64,000 nt of DNA from Patescibacteria group bacterium (GCA_038065555.1 JBBTQS010000001.1:128741-192740); one strand, 5' to 3'; shown: positions 7,569 to 53,727, counted from the stretch's first letter. Numbers and translations: made by a program. The notes: generated from the sequence alone by a model not told the origin.

Positions 7569-7705
7569 TATTTGACAGTTGTGGTTGTGTGAGTTACTGT
7601 GCCATCTATTCTTTTTGTGGATTTTTTTGAACAAGCGAAGACATCCATAAGAATGATACGCATTCTGACCGAAGCATCCGGTAGCTGATGCACAGAGGAG
7701 AGAAG

Positions 7706-8200: not shown

Positions 8201-8238
8201 TCGCTTTACCTGTAACCTAGCACCTGAATCAAACCCAT

Positions 8239-8291
8239 CCCCCGGCACGTACCACTTGAACAAGTGGAGAACGGCCGGGAGTTTTCTTTTG
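8239..8291 (+). terminator. Rho-independent terminator after the hypothetical gene.
   Basis: ccccggc ... gccggg stem enclosing an inner ccacttg/caagtgg hairpin, followed by agttttctttt. Confidence 0.6.
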
Positions 8292-8361
8292 CATTGACTT
8301 ATTCGCTAAATTATGCTAGAGTTCGTTATTACCCTTGGTTGCAACTACTGGACATGCGCGT

Positions 8362-17460: not shown

Positions 17461-18369
17461 ATGCAAGACGCGATTACCAAACAACTTACGCCGCACGTGC
17501 AGGAAATTCGTCAGCATGTTTCGATGGCAAAGCTCACGAGCTTCAAAATCGGTGGACCTGCTCGATATCTGGTGACGGTCAACACGATTGAGTCGTTGCG
17601 ATTTGTGCTCGATGTTGCTGCGCGTGCTGGTCTCTCGACGATCATTCTGGGAGGTGGGAGCAATATGCTCGTGGCTGATATCGGATACACGGGAATTGTC
17701 ATTAGACTTGCGATGACACGAGTGACTATAGAAGGAAATCGCGTAACTGCTGAGGCGGGTGTGAAGACGGTTGCGCTCGCGCAGCAGACGGTGGCTGCTG
17801 GGCTCACTGGATTTGAGTGGGCAGTAGGCATTCCTGGGACAATCGGCGGAGCAGTACGAGGTAACGCAGGAGCCGTTGGTGGTGAAATGCGCGATAACGT
17901 CGTTACAGTCGAAGCTCTTGTTGATGGAGACATTGCCACATTTACAAATGCAGACTGCGAGTTTGACTACCGACACAGCGCGTTCAAGGAGAATGGCGGA
18001 ATTATTCTGTCCACAACACTCGAACTTGCCGCTGGCGACCCTGCCACTGGTGCGAAGAAGATGCATGACGCGCTTATGCACCGTATGACGACACAGCCAA
18101 AGGGGTTTGCGTCTACAGGGTGTATTTTCAAGAATATTGTGACGCCTGATGGGCAGCGGATCTCTGCGGGCAAGCTCATTGATGAGGCTGGGCTCAAGGG
18201 AACAGAGCTCGGTGGTGCGCGAGTCTCTGAGGCGCATGGGAATTTTGTCATCAACACGGGTGAGGCAACGGCAGAGGAAATTCGTGAATTGGTTGAGAGA
18301 ATCAAGGCGCAGGTGTATGCTACAAGTGGATACCAACTCCACGAAGAAATCCAATACGTGGGGTTCTAA
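17461..18369 (+). CDS. murB: UDP-N-acetylenolpyruvoylglucosamine reductase MurB.
   Basis: FAD-binding ILGGGSNMLV and GIPGTIGGAV motifs. Starts 2 nt after murC. Confidence 0.9.
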   Translation: MQDAITKQLTPHVQEIRQHVSMAKLTSFKIGGPARYLVTVNTIESLRFVLDVAARAGLSTIILGGGSNMLVADIGYTGIVIRLAMTRVTIEGNRVTAEAGVKTVALAQQTVAAGLTGFEWAVGIPGTIGGAVRGNAGAVGGEMRDNVVTVEALVDGDIATFTNADCEFDYRHSAFKENGGIILSTTLELAAGDPATGAKKMHDALMHRMTTQPKGFASTGCIFKNIVTPDGQRISAGKLIDEAGLKGTELGGARVSEAHGNFVINTGEATAEEIRELVERIKAQVYATSGYQLHEEIQYVGF

Positions 18370-18376
18370 TAACCGC

Positions 18377-18670
18377 ATGCATATGATTACTGTCACGTTG
18401 CAAGCTGTGCACATTACATTGACTGACGCGATTACAGACTACGCAACCACCAAGGTTCAAGCACTCAGCAGATTCACTCGCGACGAAGAGATTGATGCAC
18501 AAGTAACCGTCGGCAAAACATCCGAACATCATCAGAAGGGCCAAGTCTTCCTCTGTGAAGTCCATCTCAAGGGACCAGACACCAAAATCATGGCAAAAGA
18601 GGTAACGGAGGACCTCTATGCAGCGATTGACGCAGTTGTAGCAAAGCTCAAGCGACAACTCACAGCCTAA
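18377..18670 (+). CDS. hpf: Ribosome hibernation promoting factor (RaiA/HPF short form).
   Basis: 98 aa, MHMITVTLQAVHITLTDAITDYATTKV... with the S30AE-family fold pattern. Confidence 0.8.
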   Translation: MHMITVTLQAVHITLTDAITDYATTKVQALSRFTRDEEIDAQVTVGKTSEHHQKGQVFLCEVHLKGPDTKIMAKEVTEDLYAAIDAVVAKLKRQLTA

Positions 18671-18749
18671 TCTTGTTCTAGTGCAATGATCATGGTAGAG
18701 TAGCCCCGATCAGGGAAGGGCTGATTTGTGATAGTTTTTCTTGAATTCT

Positions 18750-21452
18750 ATGATGAAATTTCTCTCAACATTCTTTGGTGATGCGAATGAACGGACCGTG
18801 CGCGAGTTACGGCAGGTTGCTGAGTTAGTGAATGCGCAAGAAGCAGTGATTTCGCCGCTTTCTGATGAGGCTCTGCGCGCAAAGACAGTAGAGCTACGTG
18901 AGCGCCATGCTGCAGGAGCGTCACTCGACGATCTGTTGCCAGAGGCGTTTGCTGTGGTGCGCGAAGCTGCACGTCGCGTGTTAGGGCAGCGTCATTACGA
19001 TGTTCAGCTCATGGGTGGTGTTGTTCTCCATCGCGGTCAAATTGCGGAAATGCGTACCGGTGAAGGTAAGACGCTTACTTCCACACTTCCAGTGTATCTC
19101 AATGCGATTGCTGGTAATGGAGTGCACGTGGTGACCGTGAACGACTATCTCGCGCGTCGCGACGCGGTGTGGATGGGACGCGTGTTCAAATTCTTGGGCA
19201 TGTCTGTTGGTATTATCCAGAACCTGCAGGTGAGTTATGTTTTTGATCCGGAATTTGCTGGAACCAATCCTGAAGATGCTGGATTGCGTCCATCGACGCG
19301 CCAGGAATCGTATCAGTGCGATATCACGTACGGAACGAACAACGAATTTGGTTTTGATTATTTGCGTGACAACATGGTGCAGGATTCGGCGCACATGGTG
19401 CAGCGACCGTTTTCTTTTGCCATCGTGGATGAGCTCGATTCGATTCTCATCGATGAAGCGCGTACACCGCTGATTATTTCTGCACCTGCGGCAGATGCAA
19501 GTGATGAGTATTACAAGTATGCAGCGCTTGCAAGCAAGCTCGTGCCTGAAGAAGATTTCAAGGTAGACGAGAAGTTGCGTGCTGCGACACTCACCGATGG
19601 TGGTATTGCGAAGATGGAGCAGTGGTTGGGCATTGAGAACCTCTATGCAGACGGGAGTACTCGTGCTGCACACTTTGCAGAATCAGCAGTGAAGGCGCGT
19701 GCGCTCTTCCATCGAGACAAGGAATATGTGGTGCGTGAAGGCGAGATTGTCATTGTCGACGAGTTCACTGGACGCATGATGTTCGGACGTCGCTACAATC
19801 AGGGTCTGCACCAAGCGATCGAAGCAAAGGAAGGTGTGAAGATTCAGCAGGAGAGTCAGACGCTCGGAACCGTGACGTTCCAGAATTATTTCCGTCTCTA
19901 TCCGAAGCTCGGTGGTATGACTGGTACTGCCATGACCGAGGCAGAAGAGTTCCACAAAATTTACAAGCTCGAAGTTGTAGTGATTCCAACGCATCGCGAC
20001 AACATTCGTGTGGACCATCAGGACCTGATTTACAAGACAGAAGAGGGCAAGATTCGCGCGGTTATTGCTGATGTGAAGGCGCGCCACGAGAAGGGACAGC
20101 CCGTGCTCATTGGTACCATCTCCATTGAGAAGAACGAGCTTCTCTCACTGCTTCTGGAGCAGCAAGGAGTGCCGCACGAAATGTTGAATGCCAAGAACCA
20201 CCAGCGAGAAGCAGAAATCATTGCACAAGCTGGACGTCGTGGTGCTGTGACGCTTGCAACGAACATGGCTGGGCGTGGTGTGGACATTATCCTCGGTGGT
20301 AATCCACCAGACGTTGAGGAAGCGCGCAAGGTGCGTGAACTCGGCGGTCTCTATGTCATCGGTACAGAGCGTCATGAATCACGCCGTATCGACAACCAGC
20401 TGCGTGGACGCGCAGGTCGCCAGGGTGATCCTGGTGAGACACAATTTTACGTTTCTACCGAAGACGATCTCATGCGCATTTTTGCAGGAGATCGCATGAA
20501 GACAATGATGGAGCGATTGAAACTCGATGAGGATACGCCGATTTCGCATCCGTTCATCTCTAAGGCGCTCGAGAACGCGCAGAAAAAGGTCGAAGGGAAT
20601 AACTTCGACACGCGTAAGCATTTGTTGGATTACGATGATGTGCTCAACAAGCATCGCGAAGTGTTCTATCGCCGTCGTCGCGAGGTTCTTGTTGCTGCGC
20701 AGGCTGAAGTTGGAGATGGTTCACTCGATGCATTAGTGCAGGATATGATGCGTGAGGAAGTGCGAGTAACGGTGGAGGAGTATACCCAGAGTGAGAACGC
20801 GTCGCAGTGGAATCGCGAGTCACTTGTAGCAGCATTACAACTCCTCGAACCATCAGCAGATGGCATTGTTGCTACTGCATGGGATGATCCAGCACTGAGC
20901 CCCGAAGCGAGCCGCGAACAAATCATCACGCAATTGCAGGAGCGATTGTTGTCTCGTCATGCTGAGCTCATCGCATCGATGGAACCTCAGGTTGCCCGCG
21001 ACATGGAGCGCTCTATTATGTTGCGCGCCATGGACGCATTGTGGATCGAACATCTTGAGGCTGTAGATCAGTTGCGTACAGGTATTGGTTTGCAAGGATA
21101 TGGTCAGCGTGATCCACTCGTGGAGTATCGCCGTGAGACGCATCGTCTCTTCACCATGCTCATGACGCTCATTCGTCGTGATAGTGTCCTTGCGCTCGCA
21201 CAAGTTCGCGGTGCAGTGCAGTCCTACAATGGAATGCTCGCAGCGCGCCAAGTGCAACTCTCTGGTGCAGCAAAGACCATGCAAGAGACCGCTGCAACGT
21301 CAACCGACGGTCAGCTGATGGAGTCCACACTTGGACAGGCTGCCGTTGCCGTATCCTCACTTTCGCCCGTTGAATCAGGCGACAAGGTGGGACGCAATGA
21401 GCCATGTCACTGCGGCTCAGGCAAGAAGTTCAAGAAGTGTCATGGTGCGTAA
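18750..21452 (+). CDS. secA: Preprotein translocase ATPase SecA.
   Basis: DEAD-like motor motifs (MRTGEGKT, IVDEVDSILIDEA) and C-terminal zinc finger CHCGSGKKFKKCHG. TTG at 18741 or ATG at 18750. Confidence 0.95.
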   Translation: MMKFLSTFFGDANERTVRELRQVAELVNAQEAVISPLSDEALRAKTVELRERHAAGASLDDLLPEAFAVVREAARRVLGQRHYDVQLMGGVVLHRGQIAEMRTGEGKTLTSTLPVYLNAIAGNGVHVVTVNDYLARRDAVWMGRVFKFLGMSVGIIQNLQVSYVFDPEFAGTNPEDAGLRPSTRQESYQCDITYGTNNEFGFDYLRDNMVQDSAHMVQRPFSFAIVDELDSILIDEARTPLIISAPAADASDEYYKYAALASKLVPEEDFKVDEKLRAATLTDGGIAKMEQWLGIENLYADGSTRAAHFAESAVKARALFHRDKEYVVREGEIVIVDEFTGRMMFGRRYNQGLHQAIEAKEGVKIQQESQTLGTVTFQNYFRLYPKLGGMTGTAMTEAEEFHKIYKLEVVVIPTHRDNIRVDHQDLIYKTEEGKIRAVIADVKARHEKGQPVLIGTISIEKNELLSLLLEQQGVPHEMLNAKNHQREAEIIAQAGRRGAVTLATNMAGRGVDIILGGNPPDVEEARKVRELGGLYVIGTERHESRRIDNQLRGRAGRQGDPGETQFYVSTEDDLMRIFAGDRMKTMMERLKLDEDTPISHPFISKALENAQKKVEGNNFDTRKHLLDYDDVLNKHREVFYRRRREVLVAAQAEVGDGSLDALVQDMMREEVRVTVEEYTQSENASQWNRESLVAALQLLEPSADGIVATAWDDPALSPEASREQIITQLQERLLSRHAELIASMEPQVARDMERSIMLRAMDALWIEHLEAVDQLRTGIGLQGYGQRDPLVEYRRETHRLFTMLMTLIRRDSVLALAQVRGAVQSYNGMLAARQVQLSGAAKTMQETAATSTDGQLMESTLGQAAVAVSSLSPVESGDKVGRNEPCHCGSGKKFKKCHGA

Positions 21453-21720
21453 AAATGAAAAAGCTCGGGACTCGCACAGCGGTTAGGCTGATTGTGTCCC
21501 GAGCTCCAGATCAGTTAGGTAGGTCGGATCGTCAATCCGGAGTCGTCACCCGTTTCGCTTGGCGCCGCGTGTGCTGGTATGCTGCGGTGTGCCATCTTTT
21601 TTCAGAAGGGTTCGCGACTGTGCGCATTGCGAAATGCCAATAAACTGATCTGGAGCGAGTCTAGCACAACACGTCATTTTTGTCAAGTAGGCAATAGACA
21701 CTACGAAATTGATCTCAAAT

Positions 21721-22290
21721 ATGCATATTATTCTCGGTTCTTCCTCAGCATCTCGTCAGCAGGTGATGCGTGAGCTGGGGTTGCCATTTACGATTGTTAC
21801 GCCTGACATCGATGAGAAGTCGATTCGATTTGATGATCCAGAGACGCTCACGTTGGCTATTGCCAATGCGAAGGCTGATGCGGTGGCCGACAAGCTCACG
21901 GAGTCGGGGATCGTCATTGCGTCAGATCACGTGGAAGTCTGCGATGGAGTGATCTATGAAAAGCCTTCAAGTGAACAAGAAATTCGCGAGCTGTATAAGC
22001 ACTTCAGCAATCGTGAGCTCGTGGGGTACTCAGCAGTCGTGGTACTCAACACTGCGACTGGGAAGCGCGCGCAAGGTATCGAGCGTGCATCATTCATGTA
22101 TCGCGAAATTCCCGATGCAGTGCTCACGCAGTACATTGCAGAAGGGGATCCGTGGAATGCCGCGGGTGCTATTCGCGTGCAGAACGAGTTGCTCCTTCCG
22201 TATTTGGAATATTTGCACGGTGGAGTTGATGTGATTATGGGGTTGCCCAAAGCATTGACACTTCGTCTCGTCGAAGAAGTGCAGAACTAG
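21721..22290 (+). CDS. maf: Maf-like nucleoside triphosphate pyrophosphatase (septum formation protein Maf).
   Basis: MHIILGSSSASRQQVMRELGL N-terminus characteristic of Maf/Ham1-like. Confidence 0.85.
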   Translation: MHIILGSSSASRQQVMRELGLPFTIVTPDIDEKSIRFDDPETLTLAIANAKADAVADKLTESGIVIASDHVEVCDGVIYEKPSSEQEIRELYKHFSNRELVGYSAVVVLNTATGKRAQGIERASFMYREIPDAVLTQYIAEGDPWNAAGAIRVQNELLLPYLEYLHGGVDVIMGLPKALTLRLVEEVQN

Positions 22291-22357
22291 GTGACTCGTG
22301 TTATCCACTTGTACTTTTTTGGTTCTTCAGCGTACAATACGGCCGTAATTTCAGCCT

Positions 22358-24397
22358 ATGCTTCAGATTCAAGATACACCTGAGAAACGTGCGCAATTGC
22401 GTACGAAGTTCTATGTCCTCGTGATTGCATGTATTGCGCTCGTGCTCTTCGTAGCGCCAGGTGCGTACAACCGGCTTTCGAGCTGGGTCAACAGCAAGAC
22501 CAACGTCAGTATTGGTCAATTGCACTTCGATCCATTCCGTCTCGGACTGGATCTGCAAGGTGGTGCACATTTGGTGTACGAAGTGGACACACGTCCAGTT
22601 CCAGCAGATGAAAATGTTGATGACGCAGTGGAAGGTGTACGCAATGTCGTGAATCGTCGTGTAAATGCATTTGGCGTAGGCGAACCAATTATTCAGACCA
22701 ACAAGAGCGGGGATACCCATCGCATTATTGTTGAATTGCCAGGTGTCTCTGACATGAACGCCGCAATTAGCGCGATTGGCAAAACGCCGATTCTTGAGTT
22801 CAAAGAAGTGGGCGAAGCAACAACAACACCGCTCACCGCAGAGGAAAAGGCCGAAATCGTAACAAAGAATACAGAGTCTAAGGCAGTGATTACCAAGGCG
22901 CTCGATGCACTTCGCAAGGGTCGCAGCCTCGATGATGTAGCAAAAGAGTTTTCTCAATTGACAGCGGCAAAGGAAAAGGGTGCAGACATGGGGCTGATTG
23001 ACGATCAATATGATGACGCAAAATTGATCGCATGGCTCAAGGCAAATCGTCCAGGCACTACTTCTGGATTCCTCGAAACGGACAAAGGGTTCTACATTCT
23101 CAAGAATAACGAAACAACAACCGGCCCAATCAAGGTGAAGGTTCGTCACATCCTCATCTGTCATCAAGGCGCAGACCAGTGTGGATTAAATATTACTGAG
23201 GAAGAGGCGCTGCGTCAGGCGAGCGAATTGCGTGGAACGCTCACGCCGCAGAATTTCGCAGAACAGGCGACGCTACGCTCTACAGATGGTTCTGCAAGCC
23301 AGGGTGGTGCACTACCAGAGTTCGGACGTAATGAAATGATTCCTGTTTTTCAGGACGCAGCATTTGCACTCAAGACAGGGGAGATTAGCCAGCCAGTGAA
23401 GTCACAGTATGGCTACCACATTATTTACAAGGAGAGTGAAGTGCGTGGAACGACCTTCAAGGTGAGTGGTGTCTATGCGCAGAAGTTCACAGAAGCAGAT
23501 TTCCAGGACGCGGCAAGTGAGTGGAAGAATACGGGACTTGGTGGCGCGCAACTTGTGCGATCTGCAGTGCAGTATGATCCTAATACCAACGCTCCTACCG
23601 TTGGACTTGAGTTCAGTGACGAAGGTGAGAAACTCTTCGCAGAGATTACTCGTCGCAACATTGGCAAGCCAATCGCTATTTTTCTCGATGGCGAAATCAT
23701 CAGTCAGCCTACGGTGAATACGGAGATTACGACGGGTGAAGCTGTGATTGAAGGTGATTTCACATTATCGCAGGCTCGTACGTTGGTTCGTGAGCTCAAT
23801 GCGGGTGCATTGCCACTTCCGGTGAAGTTGGTTTCACAACAAAAGGTAGATGCGAGTCTTGGATCTGAGTCACTCGACAAGAGTCTCATGGCAGCTCTCA
23901 TTGGGTTCGGGTTGGTGAGTCTCTTCGTGATTTTGTACTACCGACTCATGGGCGTGCTCGCGGTACTGGGATTGGGTGTGTACACGCTTATCGTTCTTGC
24001 ACTCTTCAAGATCGTTCCTGTCACCATGACCGCATCGGGTATTGCAGGATTTATCTTGTCACTTGGTACGGCGATTGATGCCAATATTCTGATCTTCGAG
24101 CGTATCAAGGAAGAGCGCCGATTGGGCAAGCGATTGCACGCAGCAATTGAAGAAGGATTTGTTCGCGCTTGGCCATCGATTCGTGATAGCAATGTTTCGA
24201 CGCTCATTACCTGTGTCATTCTCTTCTGGTTCGGAACGAGTATGGTGCGTGGATTTGCTCTGACGTTGTCCATCGGTGTTCTTGTTACCATGTTTACTGC
24301 AGTATTTGTGATCAGACTCTTCATTCGTCTGGTTGTACCACGTTTGGACGAACACACGAAGCTCGTGCTGGGAGCACCTGAGACCCCACGCGAATAA
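22358..24397 (+). CDS. secD: Protein translocase subunit SecD, with a ~190-aa parvulin/PpiC-type PPIase insertion in the periplasmic P1 domain.
   Basis: SecD N-terminal TM+P1 (LDLQGGAHLVYEVD), conserved IAIFLDGEIISQPTV and a 6-TM C-terminal domain. Residues ~175-362 carry parvulin motifs (VRHILI ... GGALPEFGRNEMIPVFQDAAFALKTGEIS ... YGYHIIYK) plus an upstream degenerate parvulin-like half. Confidence 0.9.
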   Translation: MLQIQDTPEKRAQLRTKFYVLVIACIALVLFVAPGAYNRLSSWVNSKTNVSIGQLHFDPFRLGLDLQGGAHLVYEVDTRPVPADENVDDAVEGVRNVVNRRVNAFGVGEPIIQTNKSGDTHRIIVELPGVSDMNAAISAIGKTPILEFKEVGEATTTPLTAEEKAEIVTKNTESKAVITKALDALRKGRSLDDVAKEFSQLTAAKEKGADMGLIDDQYDDAKLIAWLKANRPGTTSGFLETDKGFYILKNNETTTGPIKVKVRHILICHQGADQCGLNITEEEALRQASELRGTLTPQNFAEQATLRSTDGSASQGGALPEFGRNEMIPVFQDAAFALKTGEISQPVKSQYGYHIIYKESEVRGTTFKVSGVYAQKFTEADFQDAASEWKNTGLGGAQLVRSAVQYDPNTNAPTVGLEFSDEGEKLFAEITRRNIGKPIAIFLDGEIISQPTVNTEITTGEAVIEGDFTLSQARTLVRELNAGALPLPVKLVSQQKVDASLGSESLDKSLMAALIGFGLVSLFVILYYRLMGVLAVLGLGVYTLIVLALFKIVPVTMTASGIAGFILSLGTAIDANILIFERIKEERRLGKRLHAAIEEGFVRAWPSIRDSNVSTLITCVILFWFGTSMVRGFALTLSIGVLVTMFTAVFVIRLFIRLVVPRLDEHTKLVLGAPETPRE

Positions 24398-24407
24398 TTC
24401 CACCTCT

Positions 24408-25325
24408 ATGATCTCCATTGTTAAGACACGCAAAGTTTGGTACTCCGCAGCGGTGGTCTATTTGTTCATCGCGATCGCCGCAATCTTCTGGTACGGATTC
24501 AAGCCAGGACTCGACTTCACAGGTGGTGCATTGTTGGAAGTTGATTTCTCTCAGAACCGTCCGTCAACCTCCGTTGTGTACGAAGCACTCAAGCCAATGG
24601 ACCTCGGCACCATTGTTGCGCAGCCAGCAGACGAGCAGGCGATGCTCGTTCGTCTCCCGTTCCTCAGCGTTGAGCAGCATCAGGAAGTGTTGAATCGACT
24701 CGATGAGCTCAACGGTACTGCGCCAATTGTCGAGACACGCTACGAGACCATCGGACCATCGGTGAGCAGTGAGCTGAAATCCAAGTCTATCAGCGCTATT
24801 ATCCTCGTGATTCTCGGAATCATGGTGTACATCACTTGGACGTTCCGCAAAGTATCCAAGCCGATTCCGTCTTGGAACTACGGACTCATTGTCGTTGTCG
24901 CGCTGGTGCACGACGTGATTGTTCCAGCAGGCGTGATGGCTGTCCTTGGTCACTTCCTTGGGTATGAAATCGATACACTGTTCGTTGTTGCATTGTTGAC
25001 GATCCTTGCATTCTCTGTGAACGACACGATTGTGACGTTCGATCGCATTCGCGAAAATCTCGTACGCGCTCCACAACCTGATTTTGCAGACACTGTGGAT
25101 AACAGCATCAACGAGACAATCACGCGATCCCTCGCAACATCATTCGCGGTGCTACTCACCATGTTCGCCGTGTACTTCTTTGGTGGCGAAACTGTTGAGC
25201 ATTTCATGCTCATTATGATCGTTGGAATGATTGCGGGTACGTACTCTTCGATCTTCCTCGCGTCTCCGATGCTCGTAGATCTTGCACGTCGAATGGATGT
25301 GCACAAACTCGTACCAAAAAAATAA
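24408..25325 (+). CDS. secF: Protein translocase subunit SecF.
   Basis: SecF TM+P4 architecture. Starts 11 nt after the secD stop. Confidence 0.9.
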   Translation: MISIVKTRKVWYSAAVVYLFIAIAAIFWYGFKPGLDFTGGALLEVDFSQNRPSTSVVYEALKPMDLGTIVAQPADEQAMLVRLPFLSVEQHQEVLNRLDELNGTAPIVETRYETIGPSVSSELKSKSISAIILVILGIMVYITWTFRKVSKPIPSWNYGLIVVVALVHDVIVPAGVMAVLGHFLGYEIDTLFVVALLTILAFSVNDTIVTFDRIRENLVRAPQPDFADTVDNSINETITRSLATSFAVLLTMFAVYFFGGETVEHFMLIMIVGMIAGTYSSIFLASPMLVDLARRMDVHKLVPKK

Positions 25326-25328
25326 AAG

Positions 25329-25517
25329 GTGTGGTATACTTTGTCTCGTATGGAAGACAAAGTTTGGAGACATATCTACTCATTCGTCACTACGGTGATG
25401 TTCTTCGTGATCTTCACCGGCGCATATTACGCAGGTGCGCATAACTTCTGGTGGATGGGTGTGGTTTTTTTGCCGATCGCGTATCTCGGCGTGTTCAATT
25501 TCTTAGTACCGGATTAG
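25329..25517 (+). CDS. Small hypothetical membrane protein (two TM helices). First gene of the post-secF module.
   Basis: 62-aa ORF packed 4 nt after secF and ending 2 nt before the next gene. Hydrophobic stretches FVTTVMFFVIFTGAYY and WMGVVFLPIAYLGVF. Confidence 0.4.
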   Translation: MWYTLSRMEDKVWRHIYSFVTTVMFFVIFTGAYYAGAHNFWWMGVVFLPIAYLGVFNFLVPD

Positions 25518-25518
25518 C

Positions 25519-27027
25519 ATGTTCCTTCTCGAAGATTTTATCCTGACCATTAATAGCATTTTTGGTCAGCAAATCCATAGCGGATGGGAATTGTTTTTGT
25601 TCTTCTACGTTCATGGCGGGTGGATCATTCTTTTTATGTTCTTGTTTCGCGCCAGCCTCGAGATGTTCTACATCTACCGAGTTGGACGATTCATGGGCCA
25701 GAAGTTCCAATGGCATTTCATTGCCATCGACATTCCGAAGGAGAACGTGCAGACACCAGTTGCAGTAGAGAACATTTTTTCCCACCTTGCAGGTGCGCAC
25801 CAGACACGCGACTTGAAGGAAAAGTATTGGGATGGGCAGTGGCAGCAGTGGTATAGTTTTGAAATTGTAAGCATCGAAGGACACATCCAGTTCATTATCA
25901 TGCTGGAGCATTCGATGCGTGATGTTACTGAATCTGCGATTTATGCGCAGTATCCAGATGCTGAAATCACAGAGATTGAGGACTACGCAAAGGATTTCCC
26001 CAACACTTTCCCAGACAAGGAATACCAGTTGTGGGGGACCGAGTTCGAGCTCGTGAGCAGTCAGTATTTCCCAATCAAGACCTATTCGAGTTTTGAGGAC
26101 AAAATGTCCAAGGACGATCAGTTCAAGGATCCAATGGCTGCGATCCTCGAAACATTCACTCGTATTGGACGTGACGAGCAAGCGTGGTTACAGATCATCG
26201 TCTTCCCGATCGGACAATCATGGAAGGAAGAGGGGTTCAAGATGGCAAAGCAAATGTTGGGCAAGAGCGATCCACCGAAGCGCCATTGGTGGCACGATGT
26301 AGGCGAGTTCCCACTCTATATCCTCAAGCTCGCAGTCTACGGCATTGTAGGTGGTGAGGAAGTACCGAAGTTCGATAATGGGGAGAAGAAGAAGGACGAC
26401 GCCATGATGTTCGGTACATGGAATCTGACCCCGGGTGAGGTTCAGACCATCAAGGAAATGGAAGAGAAAGTATCGAAAATTGGTTACAACGTGAAGATCC
26501 GTGTGGTGTATATTGGTAAAAAAGAAGTCTTCGACAAATCTCGTATTGTGTACGGTATTGTGGGTGCAATGAAGCAGTTCACCCGTGAAGACAGCAACGC
26601 GCTCAAGCCATCATACAAACTTACTGGTACCTCGGCGCACTATATCTTCACTGATGCTCGTAAGAATGTACGAAGAACAAAGATGATCCGCGCGTACAAG
26701 TCGCGCAGTGCGTGGAGTGGTAAGTTGCCATTCGTGTTGAACGTTGAGGAGCTCGCGACCTTGTGGCATTTCCCAATCAAGTCTGTACGTGCGCCGCTTG
26801 TGCAGAAGACAACGAGCAAGCGTGGAGAAGCGCCAGTTGGCCTGCCTATGGTGTTTGAACGCAGAACACCACCGCAGCCCCAAGCTCCTGCAGCAAGTGT
26901 TCCTATGGTGATTCCTGATGAGGTAGCACATGATGTGCTCACCACTGCTGAAATCGATGGAGTACACGGTCAGAGTGCGAAGAATGCAAAGATGACAGAC
27001 GCGCCCGATAATTTGCCCTTTGTTTGA
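25519..27027 (+). CDS. Hypothetical membrane protein (N-terminal 2 TM, then ~430-aa soluble domain). Candidate membrane partner of the downstream coupling-type ATPase.
   Basis: N-terminal hydrophobic pair (WELFLFFYVHGGWIILFMFLF). No recognisable catalytic motifs. Conserved-looking C-terminal segment NVEELATLWHFPIKSVRAPLV. Confidence 0.6.
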   Translation: MFLLEDFILTINSIFGQQIHSGWELFLFFYVHGGWIILFMFLFRASLEMFYIYRVGRFMGQKFQWHFIAIDIPKENVQTPVAVENIFSHLAGAHQTRDLKEKYWDGQWQQWYSFEIVSIEGHIQFIIMLEHSMRDVTESAIYAQYPDAEITEIEDYAKDFPNTFPDKEYQLWGTEFELVSSQYFPIKTYSSFEDKMSKDDQFKDPMAAILETFTRIGRDEQAWLQIIVFPIGQSWKEEGFKMAKQMLGKSDPPKRHWWHDVGEFPLYILKLAVYGIVGGEEVPKFDNGEKKKDDAMMFGTWNLTPGEVQTIKEMEEKVSKIGYNVKIRVVYIGKKEVFDKSRIVYGIVGAMKQFTREDSNALKPSYKLTGTSAHYIFTDARKNVRRTKMIRAYKSRSAWSGKLPFVLNVEELATLWHFPIKSVRAPLVQKTTSKRGEAPVGLPMVFERRTPPQPQAPAASVPMVIPDEVAHDVLTTAEIDGVHGQSAKNAKMTDAPDNLPFV

Positions 27028-27033
27028 TATCCT

Positions 27034-28980
27034 ATGGAGGACCCAGCCCTTTCCATTTTCTCAAGACGTGATATCAACGTGTTTGCGCAGACGAGTTTTC
27101 GCAATCAGTTCCGCAAGTTCGGAATCAAGATCGATGACCGTCGCCGTCACATGTATGTGATCGGTAAAACAGGTATGGGTAAGACCACCCTGTTAGAGAA
27201 CATGGTGCTCGGCGACATCTATGCTGGTAACGGCGTAGGAATCGTTGACCCACACGGAGATTTCGCGGAGAAAATCATCAATTACATTCCAAGTAACCGC
27301 ATTAATGATGTGGTGTATTTCAATCCGTCGGACGTCGATTTTCCGATTGGTTTTAATATTCTCGAAGTGAAGGATCCTGCGCACCGACATTTGGTGGCGT
27401 CAGGTCTCATGAGTGTCTTCAAGAAGATTTGGATCGACATGTGGAGCGCACGCATGGAGTACATTCTCAATAATACGATTTTGTCACTTCTCGAGTATCC
27501 AGGATCGACGCTCTTGGGTATCAACCGATTGCTCGCAGACAAGGAGTACCGCAAGAAGGTAGTATCGGTGATCACAGATCCAGTTGTGAAGGCGTTTTGG
27601 ATTACAGAATTCGCGAAGTATAACGACAAGTATCAGCAAGAAGCCGTTGCTCCAATTCAGAACAAGATCGGTCAGTTCCTGTCCGCTTCTGTGATGCGTA
27701 ATATCGTTGCGCAGGTGAAGTCCACAATCGATATTCGTCAGATCATGGATGGTGAAAAGATTTTCATCATGAACTTGTCCAAGGGGCGTATTGGTGAGGA
27801 CTCATCGAGATTGCTCGGTGGAATGCTCATCACCAAGATTCAGCTTGCTGCCATGGAGCGTGTGGATATGCCAGAGGCAGAGCGTAAGGATTTCTTCCTG
27901 TACGTTGATGAATTCCAGAACTTCGCAACGGAATCATTTGCGAACATTCTTTCTGAGGCGCGCAAGTACCACTTGAGTCTCATCATGGCGCATCAGTACA
28001 TCAAGCAGCTCGATGAGCATGTGGCGGATGCGGTGTTTGGTAACGTTGGTACGATTGTGACATTCCGTGTAGGTGCTGAGGATGCAGAATTCATGGAGAA
28101 GGAGTTCGAGCCTGTGTTCACAGCCAATGATATTATCAATTTGCCGAAGTTCCATATCTACTTGAAGCTCATGATCAATGGTGTGGCGTCGCAGCCGTTT
28201 AGCGCCATGGGTATGCCGCCGATTGGTAATCCGACGAATAACCTGGAGAAGGTTGTCCGTATTTCTCGTGAGCGCTACGCACTGCCACGTGCAGAGATTG
28301 AGGACAAGATCATGCAGTGGAGTGGTATGGGAGATCTCGACTCTGAGGAAGCATTGTCCCAGATGGATGGTGGATCGAAGAAGCCCAAGAATAAGGAAGT
28401 GGATATTCCACAGGAACAGCGTCATCCGTATCAAGCACAGTGTTGGAAATGTTTGCGCATGACGGATGTGCCGTTCCCACCTGATGGGAAGCGTCCAACC
28501 TATTGTCGCGACTGTTATCCAGAGGCAATGCGTGAAAAGCAGGAAGGTAAGCCTGCCCCACCTCCACCACCATTTGCACTCGCATTGTTGAAGGAGAAGA
28601 AGGACGCAGACAATCGCAAGGGAGTCTCGCTCAAGGAATTGGAGCCTGCAACAGCACCCAAACCGCAGCAGACACCAACAGCAGTTGCAGCACCTCCTGT
28701 TGCGCCACTACCACAACGTCCTCCTGAGGAGCGCAGAGTTGAACCACGAAACGATGCACCACGTCCGAGATTGTCACTTGCAGTGACTCCACCAACAGAA
28801 GATGGTGAGCACAAGAAGCGACGCAAGCGGAAGCGCACAGGTGGAGGCGGTTCTTCGAGCGGCAATGGTCAGCATGACCAGCAGCGCCCACAAAATCAGC
28901 AACAGCAACCACCTCGTCCACGGTTACACTTGCCGGACTTGCCACCAGGCACTCCGACACAGCCTCCAGCGTCCCTCTAG
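27034..28980 (+). CDS. Soluble VirD4/TraD/TrwB (type IV coupling protein)-family P-loop ATPase with a C-terminal C4 zinc ribbon and a Pro/Gln-rich disordered tail.
   Basis: Walker A VIGKTGMGKTT (27163-27189) and Walker B FFLYVDEFQNF, then ARKYHLSLIMAHQYIKQLDEHVADAVFGNVGTIVTFRVG, matching the TraG/TrwB C-terminal ATPase signature. No N-terminal TM. CWKC...CRDC at 28438-28515, low-complexity tail to the end. Confidence 0.7.
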   Translation: MEDPALSIFSRRDINVFAQTSFRNQFRKFGIKIDDRRRHMYVIGKTGMGKTTLLENMVLGDIYAGNGVGIVDPHGDFAEKIINYIPSNRINDVVYFNPSDVDFPIGFNILEVKDPAHRHLVASGLMSVFKKIWIDMWSARMEYILNNTILSLLEYPGSTLLGINRLLADKEYRKKVVSVITDPVVKAFWITEFAKYNDKYQQEAVAPIQNKIGQFLSASVMRNIVAQVKSTIDIRQIMDGEKIFIMNLSKGRIGEDSSRLLGGMLITKIQLAAMERVDMPEAERKDFFLYVDEFQNFATESFANILSEARKYHLSLIMAHQYIKQLDEHVADAVFGNVGTIVTFRVGAEDAEFMEKEFEPVFTANDIINLPKFHIYLKLMINGVASQPFSAMGMPPIGNPTNNLEKVVRISRERYALPRAEIEDKIMQWSGMGDLDSEEALSQMDGGSKKPKNKEVDIPQEQRHPYQAQCWKCLRMTDVPFPPDGKRPTYCRDCYPEAMREKQEGKPAPPPPPFALALLKEKKDADNRKGVSLKELEPATAPKPQQTPTAVAAPPVAPLPQRPPEERRVEPRNDAPRPRLSLAVTPPTEDGEHKKRRKRKRTGGGGSSSGNGQHDQQRPQNQQQQPPRPRLHLPDLPPGTPTQPPASL

Positions 28981-29028
28981 GGCGCTGGTTGCTTTTTTGG
29001 TGCGTCCGCGGTATGTTGGGACGTCACT

Positions 29029-30099
29029 ATGCAAGAACAGCGCAAGAAAATTCTTGTTGGAATGAGCGGCGGCGTTGACTCCTCAGTCACAGCCGCACTC
29101 TTGGTGCGCGAAGGCTACGAAGTCATTGGTGGCTACATGCGCAATTGGTCTGATGGCAAGGAAGAGAATGGCGTATGTACCTGGAAAACAGACCGACGTG
29201 ATGCGCAACGTGTTGCTGCACACCTTGGCATTCCACTCATGACGTTTGATTTCGAAGCGCAGTACCGTGCGGAGGTCGTGCAATATCTCTACGACGAGTA
29301 CGCTGCTGGACGAACTCCGAATCCTGATGTGTTGTGCAATCGCCAGATCAAGTTTGGATATTTTTTGGATGCTGCAAAACGTCTCGGATGTGATGCTGTT
29401 GCAACGGGGCATTATGCTGGTGTGCATGTAGCCGATACGGTCGCGCACCTTTTGCGTGCGAAGGACGACAACAAGGATCAGACCTATTTTCTTCATCAGC
29501 TCAATCAGGAACAATTACGCCACGCGCTTTTTCCGCTGCAGCCGTATCTCAAGAGCGAGGTGCGTGATCTTGCGCGCGAGTTCGACTTGCCAACTGCAGA
29601 GCGCAAGGAGAGTATGGGAATTTGCTTTGTAGGTCGAGTACCTATCAAAGATTTTTTGCAGTCAAACGTCGCAGCAACTCCTGGTGACGTTGTTCTCGAA
29701 GATGGAACACGTATCGGGACACATGATGGATTGCAGTTCTTCACGATTGGTCAACGACATGGATTCACGCAGCCAGGCGGCGGCGAACCGTACTATGTTG
29801 CTGCAAAGAATTTGACGACGGGGCAATTGATTGTTGCACCACGAGAAAGCGAGCTTTTGCTCTCAAATAGCGTAGAGGTCTCGAAGATGCATTGGATCTC
29901 TAGCACTTCACCCGCACAATCGCTTCGTTGTCTTGCGCGTTTGCGTCATCGCGCGCCACTGGCGTCCTGCACTGTTGACCCGCACGAAGACGGGTCTGCA
30001 ACTGTGGTTTTTGATGAGCCACAGTGGGGCGCAGCGCCTGGACAGTTTTGTGTGTTGTACACTGAGCAGGAGTGTCTCGGTGGTGGCCCTATTAGATAG
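29029..30099 (+). CDS. mnmA: tRNA-specific 2-thiouridylase MnmA.
   Basis: PP-loop ILVGMSGGVDSSV and conserved Cys residues. 356 aa. Confidence 0.9.
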   Translation: MQEQRKKILVGMSGGVDSSVTAALLVREGYEVIGGYMRNWSDGKEENGVCTWKTDRRDAQRVAAHLGIPLMTFDFEAQYRAEVVQYLYDEYAAGRTPNPDVLCNRQIKFGYFLDAAKRLGCDAVATGHYAGVHVADTVAHLLRAKDDNKDQTYFLHQLNQEQLRHALFPLQPYLKSEVRDLAREFDLPTAERKESMGICFVGRVPIKDFLQSNVAATPGDVVLEDGTRIGTHDGLQFFTIGQRHGFTQPGGGEPYYVAAKNLTTGQLIVAPRESELLLSNSVEVSKMHWISSTSPAQSLRCLARLRHRAPLASCTVDPHEDGSATVVFDEPQWGAAPGQFCVLYTEQECLGGGPIR

Positions 30100-30107
30100 C
30101 TACGTCG

Positions 30108-30137
30108 CCCTCTCTTCACATCCTCGTGAAGAGAGGG
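30108..30137 (+). other. Perfect 12-bp stem / 6-nt loop hairpin downstream of mnmA. Possible terminator/attenuator or RNA processing structure, with no U-tract.
   Basis: ccctctcttcac-atcctc-gtgaagagaggg. Confidence 0.35.
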
Positions 30138-30172
30138 TAATCTATCAATCAGTTGCCCTATCTCCAAATCGT

Positions 30173-31972
30173 ATGACAGCACAAGAACTCGTCCAAAAAT
30201 ACATTCAGTTTTTTGTAGAACGCGGACATGCGGAGATCCCATCTGCACCCCTGATTCCAGAAAATGACCCAACTGTACTCTTCACGACCGCCGGGATGCA
30301 CCCACTGGTCCCTTTTTTGCTTGGCGAGCGGCATCCTGCTGGTACGCGTCTGGTGGACTTCCAGCGTTGTGTTCGCACGGGCGATATTGATGAAGTGGGG
30401 GATGCTACACACAACACATTCTTCACCATGCTCGGCAATTGGTCGCTTGGTGATTATTTCAAGAAAGAATCGATTACGTGGAGTTACCAGCTGCTCACAC
30501 AGGCATTTGGAATTGATCCGAAGAATCTCGCTGTGACGGTGTTCGAAGGCGATGCTGATGCGCCGCGTGACGAAGAATCTGCAGGGTATTGGCGTGAGCT
30601 CGGTGTTGCGGCTGAGCGCATCGCCTTTTTGCCCAAAGGTGATAACTGGTGGGGACCTGCTGGCGTGACAGGACCGTGCGGCCCAGACACCGAGATTTTC
30701 TTTTGGACTGGGGACGAGGAAGCGCCTGCGGTGTATGACCCGAAGGACAAACGTTGGGTGGAGATTTGGAACAACGTGTTCATGCAGTACAACAAACAAG
30801 CAGATGGTACGTTTGCAGTTCTTGCAAAACCAAATGTAGACACAGGGCTGGGCCTTGAGCGTACGCTTGCGGTTCTCAATGGCAAGAAATCTGGATATGA
30901 CACGGAATTGTTCAGTGGAATGCTCGGTGCTATCGCAGCAGCGAGTGGCAAAATGTATGGTGCTGATGACGTAACAACCTTCTCGATGCGTGTCATCGCA
31001 GATCATGTGCGCACAGGCATTATGATCATTGCGGACGGTATGGTACCGAGCAACAAGGATCAAGGGTACGTACTTCGCCGACTCATTCGTCGCGCAGTTC
31101 GACATGCGCGCAAGCTCGGTGTTGAGAACATCGAATCGCTCTTGCGCGCGCTCACTGATGCAGCAGTCGCATCATTGGGCATGCTGTACGCGCATCTCGA
31201 GCCACAGCGTGAGCACGTGGTGACTGTACTCCTTGCAGAAGCAAAGAAGTTCGAAGCCACGATTCAGAAAGGCCTCAAGGAAGTGCAGCACATCTGGGAA
31301 ACACGCAAAGAAGTAACGGCCAAGGATGCGTTCGATCTCTACCAGTCATATGGATTTCCACTCGAGTTAACTGAAGAAGTGGCTCGCGAGTATGGACAAG
31401 TCATTGATGCAGCAGCATTTCGTGCTTCATTTGCAGAGCATCAGACACTATCACGCGCTGGAGCAGAGAAGAAGTTCGCAGGTGGGCTTGCTGATCATTC
31501 AGCAGAGACAACGCGATTGCACACCGCAACGCACTTGTTGCACAAAGCACTCAAAAATATTCTAGGCGAAGAGGTCCAACAGAAGGGGAGTAATATCACC
31601 GCAGAGCGTTTGCGATTTGACTTCAACTATCCAACGAAGGTAACGGACGAGCAGCTCAAAGCGATTGAGGATATGGTCAATGAGCAAATTGCGAAGGAAT
31701 TGCCTGTTGGGTTCAAGGAGCTCACGCCAGAGGAAGCAAAGGCAAGCAATGCCATCGGGTATTTCGAGGACAAATACGCACAGCTCGGTGGCAAGCTCAA
31801 GGTCTATGCCGTGGGCGATGACGCACGTGGATACTACTCAAGTGAAATTTGTGGCGGACCACATGTAGCTAATACTGCCGAACTCAAGCATTTCCGTATC
31901 CAAAAGGAGGAAGCGGTTTCAGCGGGTATTCGTCGTATCAAGGCTACGGTTGATGCTAATGGACACGCATGA
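30173..31972 (+). CDS. alaS: Alanyl-tRNA synthetase, short form (~600 aa: catalytic, tRNA-recognition and editing domains, no C-Ala domain).
   Basis: AlaRS N-terminal motifs (FTTAGMHPLVPF, FTMLGNWSLGDYFK). Editing-domain HTATHLLH and CGGPH. Ends right after the editing domain. Confidence 0.85.
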   Translation: MTAQELVQKYIQFFVERGHAEIPSAPLIPENDPTVLFTTAGMHPLVPFLLGERHPAGTRLVDFQRCVRTGDIDEVGDATHNTFFTMLGNWSLGDYFKKESITWSYQLLTQAFGIDPKNLAVTVFEGDADAPRDEESAGYWRELGVAAERIAFLPKGDNWWGPAGVTGPCGPDTEIFFWTGDEEAPAVYDPKDKRWVEIWNNVFMQYNKQADGTFAVLAKPNVDTGLGLERTLAVLNGKKSGYDTELFSGMLGAIAAASGKMYGADDVTTFSMRVIADHVRTGIMIIADGMVPSNKDQGYVLRRLIRRAVRHARKLGVENIESLLRALTDAAVASLGMLYAHLEPQREHVVTVLLAEAKKFEATIQKGLKEVQHIWETRKEVTAKDAFDLYQSYGFPLELTEEVAREYGQVIDAAAFRASFAEHQTLSRAGAEKKFAGGLADHSAETTRLHTATHLLHKALKNILGEEVQQKGSNITAERLRFDFNYPTKVTDEQLKAIEDMVNEQIAKELPVGFKELTPEEAKASNAIGYFEDKYAQLGGKLKVYAVGDDARGYYSSEICGGPHVANTAELKHFRIQKEEAVSAGIRRIKATVDANGHA

Positions 31973-33657
31973 TGCGCCGTTGGTTGAGCCGCGTTCATCT
32001 CCCGATTTTCCTTCTGATTCTTGTTGCACTTTCTGCGCACGGGCAAATGCTCGGGCGCGGATTTGTGTCTGATGATTGGGATTGGTTGCATATCGCGGCA
32101 ACAGCGCAGTTCCCAGAGTATTTTGTTGGTAATTACGCAGGAGAGCATGCTGTTGGTGGATCGTATCGTCCTGTTGTGACGGTTGTGATGCAGATGCTGT
32201 ACGCACTGTTCGGGCTGCAGGCTATTTGGTACCACGCGCTTTCTCTGGTGTTGCTCGTGGTCACAGCTATTGGTATTGCACGACTGGTGCAGACTATATT
32301 TGCCTCTGTGAGACAGCAGACGTGGATTGCGTGGATGAGCGCGCTTTTGTTTGTGCTCATTCCAACACATGCAGAAGCAGTGTATTGGGTTGCAGGGCTT
32401 CCGGATATGATCGCAGCTGCGTGTATGGTCTGGTCCAGTGTGTGGATGGTGCGGTGGCTACGCTACAATTCGTGGCGTAGCGCTGTGGTTGCGGTGGTCC
32501 TCTGGATCATAGCGCTCGGTGCAAAGGAGAATGCGGTAGTGTTGCCGGGGATTTGGTTCGCGTGCACCGCAGTGATCGCGTCTCTTGAGTGGGATCGGTC
32601 AGCATATCGATCCCGTGTGTTGCCACTGTTGCGATGGTTTGGGGGGGCGATCGCAATCCTTGTTGCTTTTGTCCTATTGCGTCGCTACGCAGTTGGGAGT
32701 AGCACATTGGTATACAGCGTTGCGGCAGCACAACTCTCACTACACAGCGCAGCTATTTCGTTGTTGCACACGTTAGTTGCGCCTGTTGTTGGATGGCATG
32801 AGATTCGACATCAGATTGTTGCGTGGGTGTGGGAGTACCGTGTATGGGTTGTGAGTGTTGTCGGTGCACTCGGATTAGGTACAATAGGCTATGGCGTGCG
32901 CAGATATGGGCGCACCACAGGTGCTGCGTTGGCACTGTTGGCTGCATTCATGATCGCTGCAATCCCAAATACTGTTGTGACATACCACCCGGTCTTTGCA
33001 GAGGGGGAGCGATTTGCATATTTTCCATCGGTGTTCATCGCAGTACTCCTTGCGTGGGGTTGTAGTTGGCTGATTACGTTGCAGCAGCAGTTGGGACGTG
33101 CAGCAACGCTCATGCTCGCACTGAGTATGACAATTGCTATTCCTCATTATCATCGTGCATGGGATGAAGCAGACCGCGCACTCGCAACAGTGCAGCAGGA
33201 CCTCACGACCTACGCAGCGACGCACTCACGTCCACAAGCAGTACTGATTGGTCTTCCAGAATTCGCACACACTATCGCTCCAGTTCTGCGCAACGGATTG
33301 CCGCAGTGGTATGCGATGACACATGACCTTGCGCCTTCCCCCTATGGTCGGTTACCCTATTACACGCAGTGGGACGGTCGCAGTGCAATGACATGGGTTG
33401 CAGACACCAATGGGTGGAAGGCAACGTATGCCACAAGCACATCACTGTGGGGCCCAGCCACATACGCGGATAGTAACCACCTGGTAGAATTATGGGGGTA
33501 TAACTACGCATTGCAGCATGGCGGGAACTTCGTGAAGTTCGTCTATCGTCCTGATGACCCCCGTACGAAGAGCTATCGCAGTGAAATATCGCCACCGATT
33601 ATTGCGTGGAGCAAAGACGGGTTTATCCCCATGCCACAGGCCACGTCGCTAAAATAA
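31969..33657 (+). CDS. GT-C fold membrane glycosyltransferase (PMT/ArnT-like, GT39/GT83 type).
   Basis: ~12 predicted TM helices with an acidic first-loop motif (FVSDDWDW) typical of GT-C enzymes. ATGA overlap with the alaS stop. Confidence 0.5.
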
Positions 33658-33694
33658 GCTAAATCATGTTGCAAAAATCGATTTTTATTGTCTA

Positions 33695-33723
33695 TTGACA
33701 GGAAATTTCACTTCACCTATACT
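33695..33723 (+). promoter_or_regulatory. Consensus sigma70 promoter TTGACA-17-TATACT for the infA-rpmJ-rpsM-rpsK-rpsD-rpoA-rplQ operon.
   Basis: ttgaca at 33695-33700, 17-nt spacer, tatact at 33718-33723. The infA ATG at 33737 implies a very short leader. Confidence 0.6.
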
Positions 33724-33736
33724 ACCGACAGTATTT

Positions 33737-33961
33737 ATGCCCGATCCATCGAAAAACGACGTTGTAGAGTTTGTAGGCGTGATTGAGGAATTGTTGCCAG
33801 CTGGCATGTTCCGCGTCCGTCTCGAGAACGAGCATATGATTCTTGCATACTTGTCAGGCAAGATGCGCAAGAATCATATTCGCCTCACCACAGGCGATTC
33901 TGTGCGCGTTGAAATGTCTCCCTACGACCTTACGAAAGGGCGAATCGTGTATCGTCAATAA
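33737..33961 (+). CDS. infA: Translation initiation factor IF-1.
   Basis: 74 aa, S1-like OB fold sequence [64 protein letters not shown]. Confidence 0.9.
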
Positions 33962-33968
33962 CCCCGCT

Positions 33969-34082
33969 ATGAAAGTACGTTCATCGGTGAAGAAAATGTG
34001 CAAGGACTGCAAGACAGCGCGCCGTGAAGGACGCGTGATTGTACAGTGCAAGACTCCAAAACATAAGCAGCGACAAGGATAA
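33969..34082 (+). CDS. rpmJ: 50S ribosomal protein L36.
   Basis: [37 protein letters not shown] (37 aa) with the C-x2-C-x12-C-x4-H zinc ribbon. Confidence 0.9.
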
Positions 34083-53580: not shown

Positions 53581-53727
53581 AGATGGATCGTCCTTAATGG
53601 AGTCAGTATACACTAATTGGAGGAGCAAAGAAACAGTTTTTGGAACTGCGTATTATTGTGTCGCACAATATATCTTATACGACACCACAGGATCGCACTT
53701 CAAAAACCACAGGTCTTACTTTACAGC

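Follow-up and report, generated by a model that had tools for sequence, protein, structure and literature searches.

The closest described relatives of the gene set treated here are the coupling proteins (T4CPs) and the VirB4 ATPases of type IV secretion systems (T4SS). Most T4CPs carry an N-terminal transmembrane (TM) domain on the same chain, according to the account in PMC7431656. In Patescibacteria, VirD4-type T4CP homologs are reported by Quinonero-Coronel et al. (2025; PMC12102498) in 2,918 of 3,035 genomes (96%) and VirB4 in 2,417 (80%), so that at least 501 genomes have a T4CP-type ATPase without VirB4. Just 148 of the 5,713 T4CP genes counted there lie near virB4, relaxases are nearly absent (109 in the 3,035 genomes), and the authors propose exaptation of the orphan T4CP genes for another function. 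The present analysis concerns a 64,000-nucleotide stretch of DNA (the window; GCA_038065555.1, JBBTQS010000001.1:128741-192740) from a groundwater metagenome-assembled genome of the Patescibacteria (Candidate Phyla Radiation, CPR), in which secD and secF are followed by genes for a 55-aa hairpin protein, a 502-aa membrane protein and a 648-aa soluble ATPase. With about even confidence, this module is regarded as one membrane-anchored ATPase of the VirB4/T4CP branch (FtsK-HerA superfamily), built from separate polypeptides and moving a polymer, with a nucleic acid as the favoured substrate.

By sequence, the 648-aa protein belongs to the TrwB/VirD4 coupling-protein family, as had been proposed in an initial annotation of the window. 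It scores 53 bits with TrwB_AAD_bind (PF10412, cut-off 20.5) and 27 bits with TraG-D_C (cut-off 22), also passes DUF87, and falls just short with PF02534 (19.9 vs. 20.1). In a sequence comparison with PDB chains, the matches with E < 0.001 are the T4CPs TrwB and DotL. The Walker A and Walker B motifs first read from the protein are confirmed (Table 1), and many other positions are likewise invariant across 52 homologs. Close homologs are named ‘type IV secretion system DNA-binding domain-containing protein’ by NCBI, and domain content and annotation place the ATPase very probably in the same family as the published Patescibacteria orphan T4CPs, as far as PMC12102498 describes them. The orphan homolog, initially taken as a novelty, is therefore already on record there as near-universal in the phylum. 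The protein stays far under the cut-off of every NCBIfam T4CP equivalog and of the VirB4 models (TIGR00929, 18.2 bits vs. 643; NF045975, 23.9 vs. 590), and has no match to PF03135 (CagE_TrbE_VirB).

No TM or other hydrophobic segment occurs in the 648 aa, in agreement with the soluble ATPase first described. The AlphaFold model is confident for about residues 10-430 and for a C-terminal zinc finger, and places a purely helical block (H115-H225) between the two Walker motifs (residues 44-51 and 288-293), resembling the all-alpha insertion in the nucleotide-binding domain of T4CPs. VirB4 C-terminal domains (CTDs) carry an equivalent helical insertion, and the block cannot separate T4CP from VirB4. 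In profile alignments (hhalign) with pGO1 proteins, which are weak single-sequence templates, the ATPase profile reached 69% with TrsE (VirB4) and 16% with TrsK (T4CP). The C-terminal region, not remarked on in the initial annotation, contains a zinc finger (zf_Tbcl_2, PF23477, 1.2e-09; TIGR04272, 39.2 bits vs. a cut-off of 36) and a basic tail with the sequence HKKRRKRKR (nt 28810-28836), of which an RKRxR patch is kept in the family consensus; residues 435-647 hold 37 K+R vs. 27 D+E, and 39 Pro. This C-terminus distinguishes the protein from T4CPs such as TraD, which ends in an acidic relaxosome-binding tail. In one Parcubacteria locus (L096), a lone ATPase ortholog (7001-8902) lies near dnaB and ybaB, and zf_Tbcl_2 is encoded by a separate 103-aa gene directly 3' of it (9042-9353), suggesting that the zinc finger is a detachable module.

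The TM anchor that is missing from the ATPase appears to be supplied in trans by the 502-aa protein encoded immediately upstream, and in cis in the fused paralog described below. Its large domain, at first considered unannotatable, is DUF8128 (PF26449) in the precomputed annotation of an identical protein (NCBI AAB384_00795) and of its gene on four contigs, which extend up to 881 kb. A DUF8128 profile built from 58 homologs matches 3,258 clusters at 50% identity. In place of the two N-terminal TM helices originally assigned, there is one strong TM segment (about residues 22-42) after an amphipathic helix. In the AlphaFold model (pLDDT 83, pTM 0.74), this amphipathic helix is followed by a long TM helix, then by an alpha/beta domain, and finally by a disordered stretch of about 70 aa with a conserved terminal motif, P-x-N-L-P. 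No Walker A motif was seen in the translation. The AlphaFold-Foldseek comparison suggested at the outset was run with this model and ranked VirB4 first: the top four matches are TrwK/VirB4 chains, three of them with probabilities of at least 0.99 and two with E ≤ 0.001. Because the list contains neither the CTD-only VirB4 chain 4ag5 nor any other P-loop ATPase, the match is presumed to be to the VirB4-specific N-terminal domain (NTD), and about residues 63-430 would form a cytoplasmic, VirB4-NTD-like domain. To our knowledge, such a domain is lacking in T4CPs.

The predicted succession of TM segment, VirB4-type NTD and ATPase domain is that of VirB4 (TrwK of R388; Thermoanaerobacter pseudethanolicus) and of VirB3-VirB4 fusions. 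By contrast, the VirB4 models fail on the motor, which is T4CP-like by sequence. The initial description of a split coupling-protein-like ATPase therefore stands with regard to the sequence family of the motor and its separate anchor, but not to the fold of the anchor, which is predicted to be VirB4-NTD-like; in terms of modelled structure, a VirB4 in two pieces describes the pair no less well than a coupling protein in two pieces. A two-gene arrangement of this kind has a precedent in pGO1, where the NTD-like TrsD is encoded immediately 5' of the VirB4 ATPase TrsE (homology as given in PMC12102498), and most Patescibacteria genomes (2,417 of 3,035 in the same source) hold a separate, bona fide VirB4. 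Strictly, the module is a member of neither family, because it lacks the same-chain TM domain and T4SS linkage of T4CPs and fails the VirB4 models.

The two large proteins appear to belong together because they are fused in a diverged paralog. In related genomes this paralog is encoded by single open reading frames (ORFs) of 846-854 aa (L040, 16211-18751(-); L055, 17947-20511(-); L015, 1086-3644(+)) that contain both domains, and PF26449 and PF10412 occur in one chain in precomputed Pfam annotation. The PHROG family phrog_5156 (824 positions) has DUF8128 at 75-290 and the ATPase at 408-806, and the fused frame is continuous in 80 metagenome loci (L098-L177), with a median of 860 aa. In view of this paralog, the DUF8128-ATPase pair is best understood as a membrane ATPase, VirB3/VirB4-like and T4CP-like in character, that is divided over two chains. 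The split genes were followed in 80 GTDB species-level loci (L005-L084) from Magasanik-, Uhr-, Falkow- and Buchananbacteria and relatives; they are adjacent in 42 of the 72 loci where this could be assessed, typically 0-10 nt apart. Both the fusion and this adjacency bear out the early suggestion that the upstream membrane protein is the partner of the ATPase. The two genes are in frame in the window, and the gap is 0 nt in L073 and L084. Their joining by read-through or recoding was considered and rejected, since no more than 17 of 44 pairs share a reading frame and most stop codons are TAA. The fused paralog has surroundings of its own: in 71 of 73 loci it is preceded by the gene for a soluble protein of about 170 aa without Pfam match, and in 46 of 60 a same-strand dnaX lies downstream, often followed by a C39-like peptidase.

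The third protein has two hydrophobic segments (residues 8-26 and 33-51) and no match in Pfam, NCBIfam, PADLOC or PHROG. An iterated HMM search found its family in 32 of the 80 related loci, each time immediately 5' of DUF8128 and in 31 of the 32 after secF, with the motif M-x-[DE]-x3-RH...GY..G..GWWW. The protein is most likely 55 aa long, starting at ATG 25350, and not 62 aa from GTG 25329 as first called, because all 32 homologs start with M-[STE]-[DE] there and gene callers on identical contigs give 55 aa. The gene order of small TM protein, NTD-like protein and ATPase is the same as in virB3-virB4, and by position the hairpin may be equivalent to VirB3, although its sequence has no detectable homology to any known family.

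Based on these features, a mechanism can be proposed in which DUF8128 does the job of VirB3 plus the VirB4 NTD by providing the membrane-spanning helix and, on the cytoplasmic side, a domain for docking. The RecA-like motor with a helical insertion would be the 648-aa protein, extended by the zinc finger and basic tail, and the 55-aa hairpin would be a third membrane subunit restricted to the lineage. DUF8128 would tether an ATPase ring at the cytoplasmic face of the membrane, and ATP hydrolysis would push a polymer through or to the membrane. The substrate may be DNA or another nucleic acid (in uptake, export or processing at the membrane), handled independently of a VirB4-based T4SS. Nucleic acid is favoured because of the kinship with T4CPs, FtsK and HerA, the zinc finger and basic tail, the phage-borne relatives described below, and the linkage of the paralog to dnaX.

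Table 1. Coordinates of the module, its motifs and flanking genes, counted from the first nucleotide of the window.
Feature	Position	Strand	Remarks
maf	21709..22290	+	PF02545 on identical contig; opens predicted transcription unit
secD, 679 aa	22358..24397	+	precomputed Pfam SecD_1st, Rotamase/Rotamase_3, SecDF_P1_head, SecD_SecF_C
secF, 305 aa	24408..25325	+	Pfam Sec_GG, SecD_SecF_C; ATG 24408, stop TAA 25323-25325
55-aa two-TM hairpin protein	25350..25517	+	ATG start; homolog family 5' of DUF8128
502-aa DUF8128 protein	25519..27027	+	PF26449; TM helix, predicted VirB4-NTD-like domain, disordered tail
648-aa soluble VirB4-CTD/T4CP-like ATPase	27034..28980	+	C-terminal zinc finger, basic disordered tail
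Walker A GKTGMGKT, residues 44-51	27163..27186	+	G44, K45, G47, G49, K50 invariant in 52 homologs
Walker B region FLYVDEFQNF, residues 288-297	27895..27924	+	D292, E293, F294, Q295, N296 invariant in 52 homologs
CxxC-x17-CxxC treble-clef zinc finger, residues 463-496	28420..28521	+	cysteines 470, 473, 491, 494
Disordered Pro/Gln-rich basic tail, residues 530-648	28621..28977	+	pLDDT <50
Terminator-like hairpin + T-run	28966..28998	+	overlaps ATPase stop; 9 pairs (7 G-C), loop 5, then TTGCTTTTTT
mnmA	29029..30099	+	ORF
alaS	ends 31972	+	ORF

The gene order on the + strand is secA, a small Ribosomal_S30AE gene (ribosome-hibernation-factor family, Pfam), maf, secD, secF, the genes for the 55-aa, 502-aa and 648-aa proteins, mnmA and alaS. 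The three ORFs after secF are thus present on one strand as first described, with gaps measuring 24 nt (secF to the small gene), 1 nt and 6 nt in place of the 4, 2 and 7 nt originally given. Thousands of homologs for each of the two large genes indicate that these are real genes and not chance ORFs. The hairpin at 28966-28988 is the best-ranked terminator-like candidate in a scan of positions 18000-34000 (16 kb). A second one, with 8 pairs (3 G-C) at 21569-21594, separates secA from maf, and for the predicted operon these two are the only hairpin terminators. Because of the tight gaps and the position of these hairpins at its two ends, maf-secD-secF-small-502-648 is predicted to form one transcription unit. 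The co-transcription with secDF suggested in the initial annotation is therefore plausible, given also that the only strong terminator follows the ATPase and that the secF-DUF8128 junction is kept in 41 of 64 loci. The SecD encoded in the window has matches to PpiC/parvulin rotamase between SecD_1st and the P1-head domain, apparently an inserted peptidyl-prolyl isomerase (PPIase) domain, which also occurs in SecD of Magasanikbacteria (L087, L088).

The setting is chromosomal and housekeeping, as originally noted. Pfam scans covered 30 other ORFs of the window, together with precomputed Pfam annotation of the contig stretch matching about 15.5-37 kb, and found only housekeeping families, among them Mur ligases, penicillin-binding proteins (PBPs), ClpB, PriA, aminoacyl-tRNA synthetases, glycosyltransferases, MreB, ribosomal proteins and a ZnuABC-type (zinc/manganese) ABC transporter. 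As to RNA features, a single tRNA was found in the window. Five ORFs are without Pfam match at the thresholds applied: a 562-aa ORF (31969-33657), whose start overlaps the alaS stop and which has weak homologs at the same position in L009 and L010, and ORFs at 44518-45915(-), 52303-53628(-), 56828-57655(-) and 258-1151(-). No VirB, relaxase or pilin families, including VirB3, VirB6 and VirB8, were detected by Pfam within this scope, so that the initial statement on their absence holds for Pfam-detectable genes among the ORFs scanned. T4SS and relaxase genes are not recurrent in the 80 genome loci or in the 80 loci of the fused paralog either, in contrast to the usual setting of T4CPs and VirB4.

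The conserved proximity to secDF would also fit a different role for the module, as an envelope-biogenesis or protein-handling ATPase working with Sec, either as a VirB4-style dislocase of small membrane proteins (e.g. the 55-aa hairpin) or as an exporter resembling the type VII secretion system (T7SS; EccC/EccE-like). VirB4 is known as a pilin dislocase, and the protein translocases EccC, DotL and Cag-beta are structural relatives of the ATPase. Such a role would account for the operon with secDF and the predicted shared transcription unit. Of 64 assessable loci, 41 have DUF8128 after secD-secF, with or without the small gene. The distance between secF and DUF8128 is short (≤ 650 nt in 39 of 48 cases) compared with the loose secA-secD (median 855 nt) and ATPase-mnmA (median 2.8 kb) junctions, which indicates that the secF junction is better kept than gene order in general. 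Among 59 loci assessable on both sides, DUF8128 adjoins both secF and the ATPase gene in 18, secF only in 20, the ATPase only in 13 and neither in 8, and the 20 loci with secDF but no adjacent ATPase can also be read in favour of a Sec-linked role. On the other hand, DUF8128 lies away from secDF in 23 of 64 loci, and in 33 of the 80 its immediate 5' neighbour is instead a gene for a Sigma70_r4/HARE-HTH protein of about 376 aa (e.g. L025, 8817-9947), in 7 of these between secF and DUF8128. Furthermore, none of the 80 fused-paralog loci has Sec genes beside the paralog, the zinc finger and basic tail point more to nucleic acid, and the similarity to EccE is weak. Adjacency to secDF by itself is weak evidence, because gene order is conserved over a long range (secA...alaS) in this clade. 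Taken together, a Sec-linked ATPase is considered quite improbable.

The same counts bear on two points of the initial annotation. The functional link of the module to SecDF that was first proposed is not upheld, given the 20 loci in which DUF8128 stands beside secDF without an adjacent ATPase and the association of the fused paralog with dnaX. In relatives, DUF8128 adjoins the ATPase gene in 42 of 72 loci and secF in 41 of 64, but a sizeable minority of loci has the genes separated, and scattering had been named in the initial annotation as counting against its proposal. Many records in this sample (L005-L084) are titled ‘uncultured Gammaproteobacteria bacterium’; they are CPR-like by synteny, with SecA and AlaS 50-60% identical to those of the window, and the titles are unreliable for taxonomy.

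Across the loci, the ATPase is as conserved as SecA, with median identities of 58% for the ATPase, 54% for SecA, 46% for SecD and 41% for DUF8128. This core-gene-like conservation sets the module apart from T4CPs, which tend to diverge faster than core genes, and bears on the possibility that it is a coupling protein for a Patescibacteria VirB4-type T4SS encoded elsewhere, with DUF8128 docking the ATPase on the inner-membrane complex and replacing the N-terminal TM domain. In the R388 machine (7o41/7o42), the VirB4 NTD reportedly contacts VirB3 and VirB8, and such a domain could plug into a T4SS. This proposal agrees with the T4CP sequence family of the ATPase, and T4CP genes are often far from virB4 in the data of PMC12102498, in which 80% of the genomes have a VirB4 T4SS. 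It does not account for the at least 501 genomes in that source with the ATPase family and no VirB4, nor for the roughly two copies per genome, each in a housekeeping context of its own (secDF or dnaX), and it fits poorly with the lack of recurrent T4SS genes in the 160 loci and with ATPase conservation equal to or exceeding that of SecA. In Southlakia epibionticum, the T4SS is reported as essential and the t4cp homolog as non-essential, and relaxases are nearly absent from the phylum (PMC12102498); the T4SS of this species was described by Wang et al. (2023) as lacking recognisable coupling or relaxase proteins. A T4SS coupling protein is thus judged unlikely.

Viral and mobile sequences provide a further comparison. 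Six phage-like IMG/VR contigs (L090-L095; e.g. L090 9956-11254, L095 2383-3618) encode compact soluble proteins related to the ATPase (411-456 aa, 42-61% identity), near genes for tail-fibre-like proteins, endolysin, endonuclease VII and integrase; they have weak similarity to terminase large subunits (phrog_2666), and L095 encodes a second protein, of 1165 aa, with the same ATPase domain. DUF8128 was found in none of 2.9 million viral contigs (IMG/VR), and a phage or mobile origin of the module was rejected, as only the compact ATPase relatives occur there. These phage-borne relatives, the PHROG family spanning the fused form, and the slightly lower GC of the module (0.46-0.50 vs. about 0.51-0.52 in the rest of the window) could be taken as signs that the module is what is left, through domestication or decay, of a conjugative or phage-like element that had integrated and came to lie by secDF by accident. 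This explanation is largely refuted, and is given very little weight, by the intact and invariant catalytic motifs, cross-species identity at or above that of SecA, synteny kept in dozens of species-level genomes, the absence of DUF8128 from viral contigs, the lack of an integrase, relaxase, repeats or tRNA flanking the module, and the near-universality in the phylum reported in PMC12102498. The module is chromosomal, is passed on vertically and strongly conserved in Patescibacteria, and lies outside conjugative elements.

Other members of the FtsK-HerA superfamily are more distant. The similarity of the module to FtsK/SpoIIIE, HerA and EccC-EccE is much weaker than that to VirB4 or TrwB; it has no FtsK gamma domain, HerA HAS-barrel or EccC multi-ATPase architecture, and no HMM of these families scores above its cut-off. 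The combination of a motor domain above threshold, a gamma/KOPS-binding domain and a multi-TM N-terminus that would indicate FtsK/SpoIIIE was not found. Replacement of FtsK by the module was also considered, and is weakened by the ftsK annotated in Saccharibacteria.

Several observations weigh against the interpretation as a membrane-anchored, polymer-moving ATPase of separate polypeptides. A DUF8128 profile search against PDB chains returned nothing even at E ≤ 10, and hhalign of DUF8128 with pGO1 TrsD gave a probability of 0.2; because no sequence-level similarity was found, the link between DUF8128 and VirB4 is drawn from predicted structure. An obligate partnership of the split forms would be an extrapolation from the fusion, as about 40% of the loci have them non-adjacent, and for such loci a conserved ATPase ortholog could be located alone among housekeeping genes. 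Inherited gene order may account for both the dnaX and the secDF adjacency. In S. epibionticum, the t4cp homolog, which may not be an ortholog of the 648-aa gene, is reported as non-essential for epibiotic growth (PMC12102498), and the annotated ftsK of Saccharibacteria (PMC10768705) speaks against a role in chromosome segregation. The nucleic-acid substrate is the weakest step.

Patescibacteria account for much of bacterial diversity, and although their genomes are tiny, 96% of these retain about two copies of this ATPase, with a function that is acknowledged as an open question in PMC12102498. A full-text search for the name DUF8128 found no paper, and the literature searches yielded nothing on this module other than PMC12102498. 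No published account was found of DUF8128 as a partner or of its fold, nor of the existence of split and fused versions or their genomic contexts beside secDF and dnaX. The VirB4-NTD-like partner, the fusion of motor and partner in a paralog and the conserved contexts therefore appear to be new; with them, an odd annotation becomes a defined machine of several subunits, which bears on the divergence of VirB4 and coupling proteins. In a bolder version, which we hold to be rather unlikely, the orphan T4CPs would not act as coupling proteins and would be the motor of an unrecognised, T4SS-independent envelope translocation machine, consisting of a platform of hairpin and DUF8128, a T4CP-like ring and a zinc-finger substrate-binding tail, and existing as two ancient paralogs (split/secDF and fused/dnaX). 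If so, the machine might be a surviving intermediate of the VirB4 and T4CP lineages, and might serve auxotrophic epibionts in exchanging DNA, nucleotides or proteins with the host. Such an exchange of macromolecules with the host, if true, would touch on how auxotrophic epibionts obtain their building blocks.

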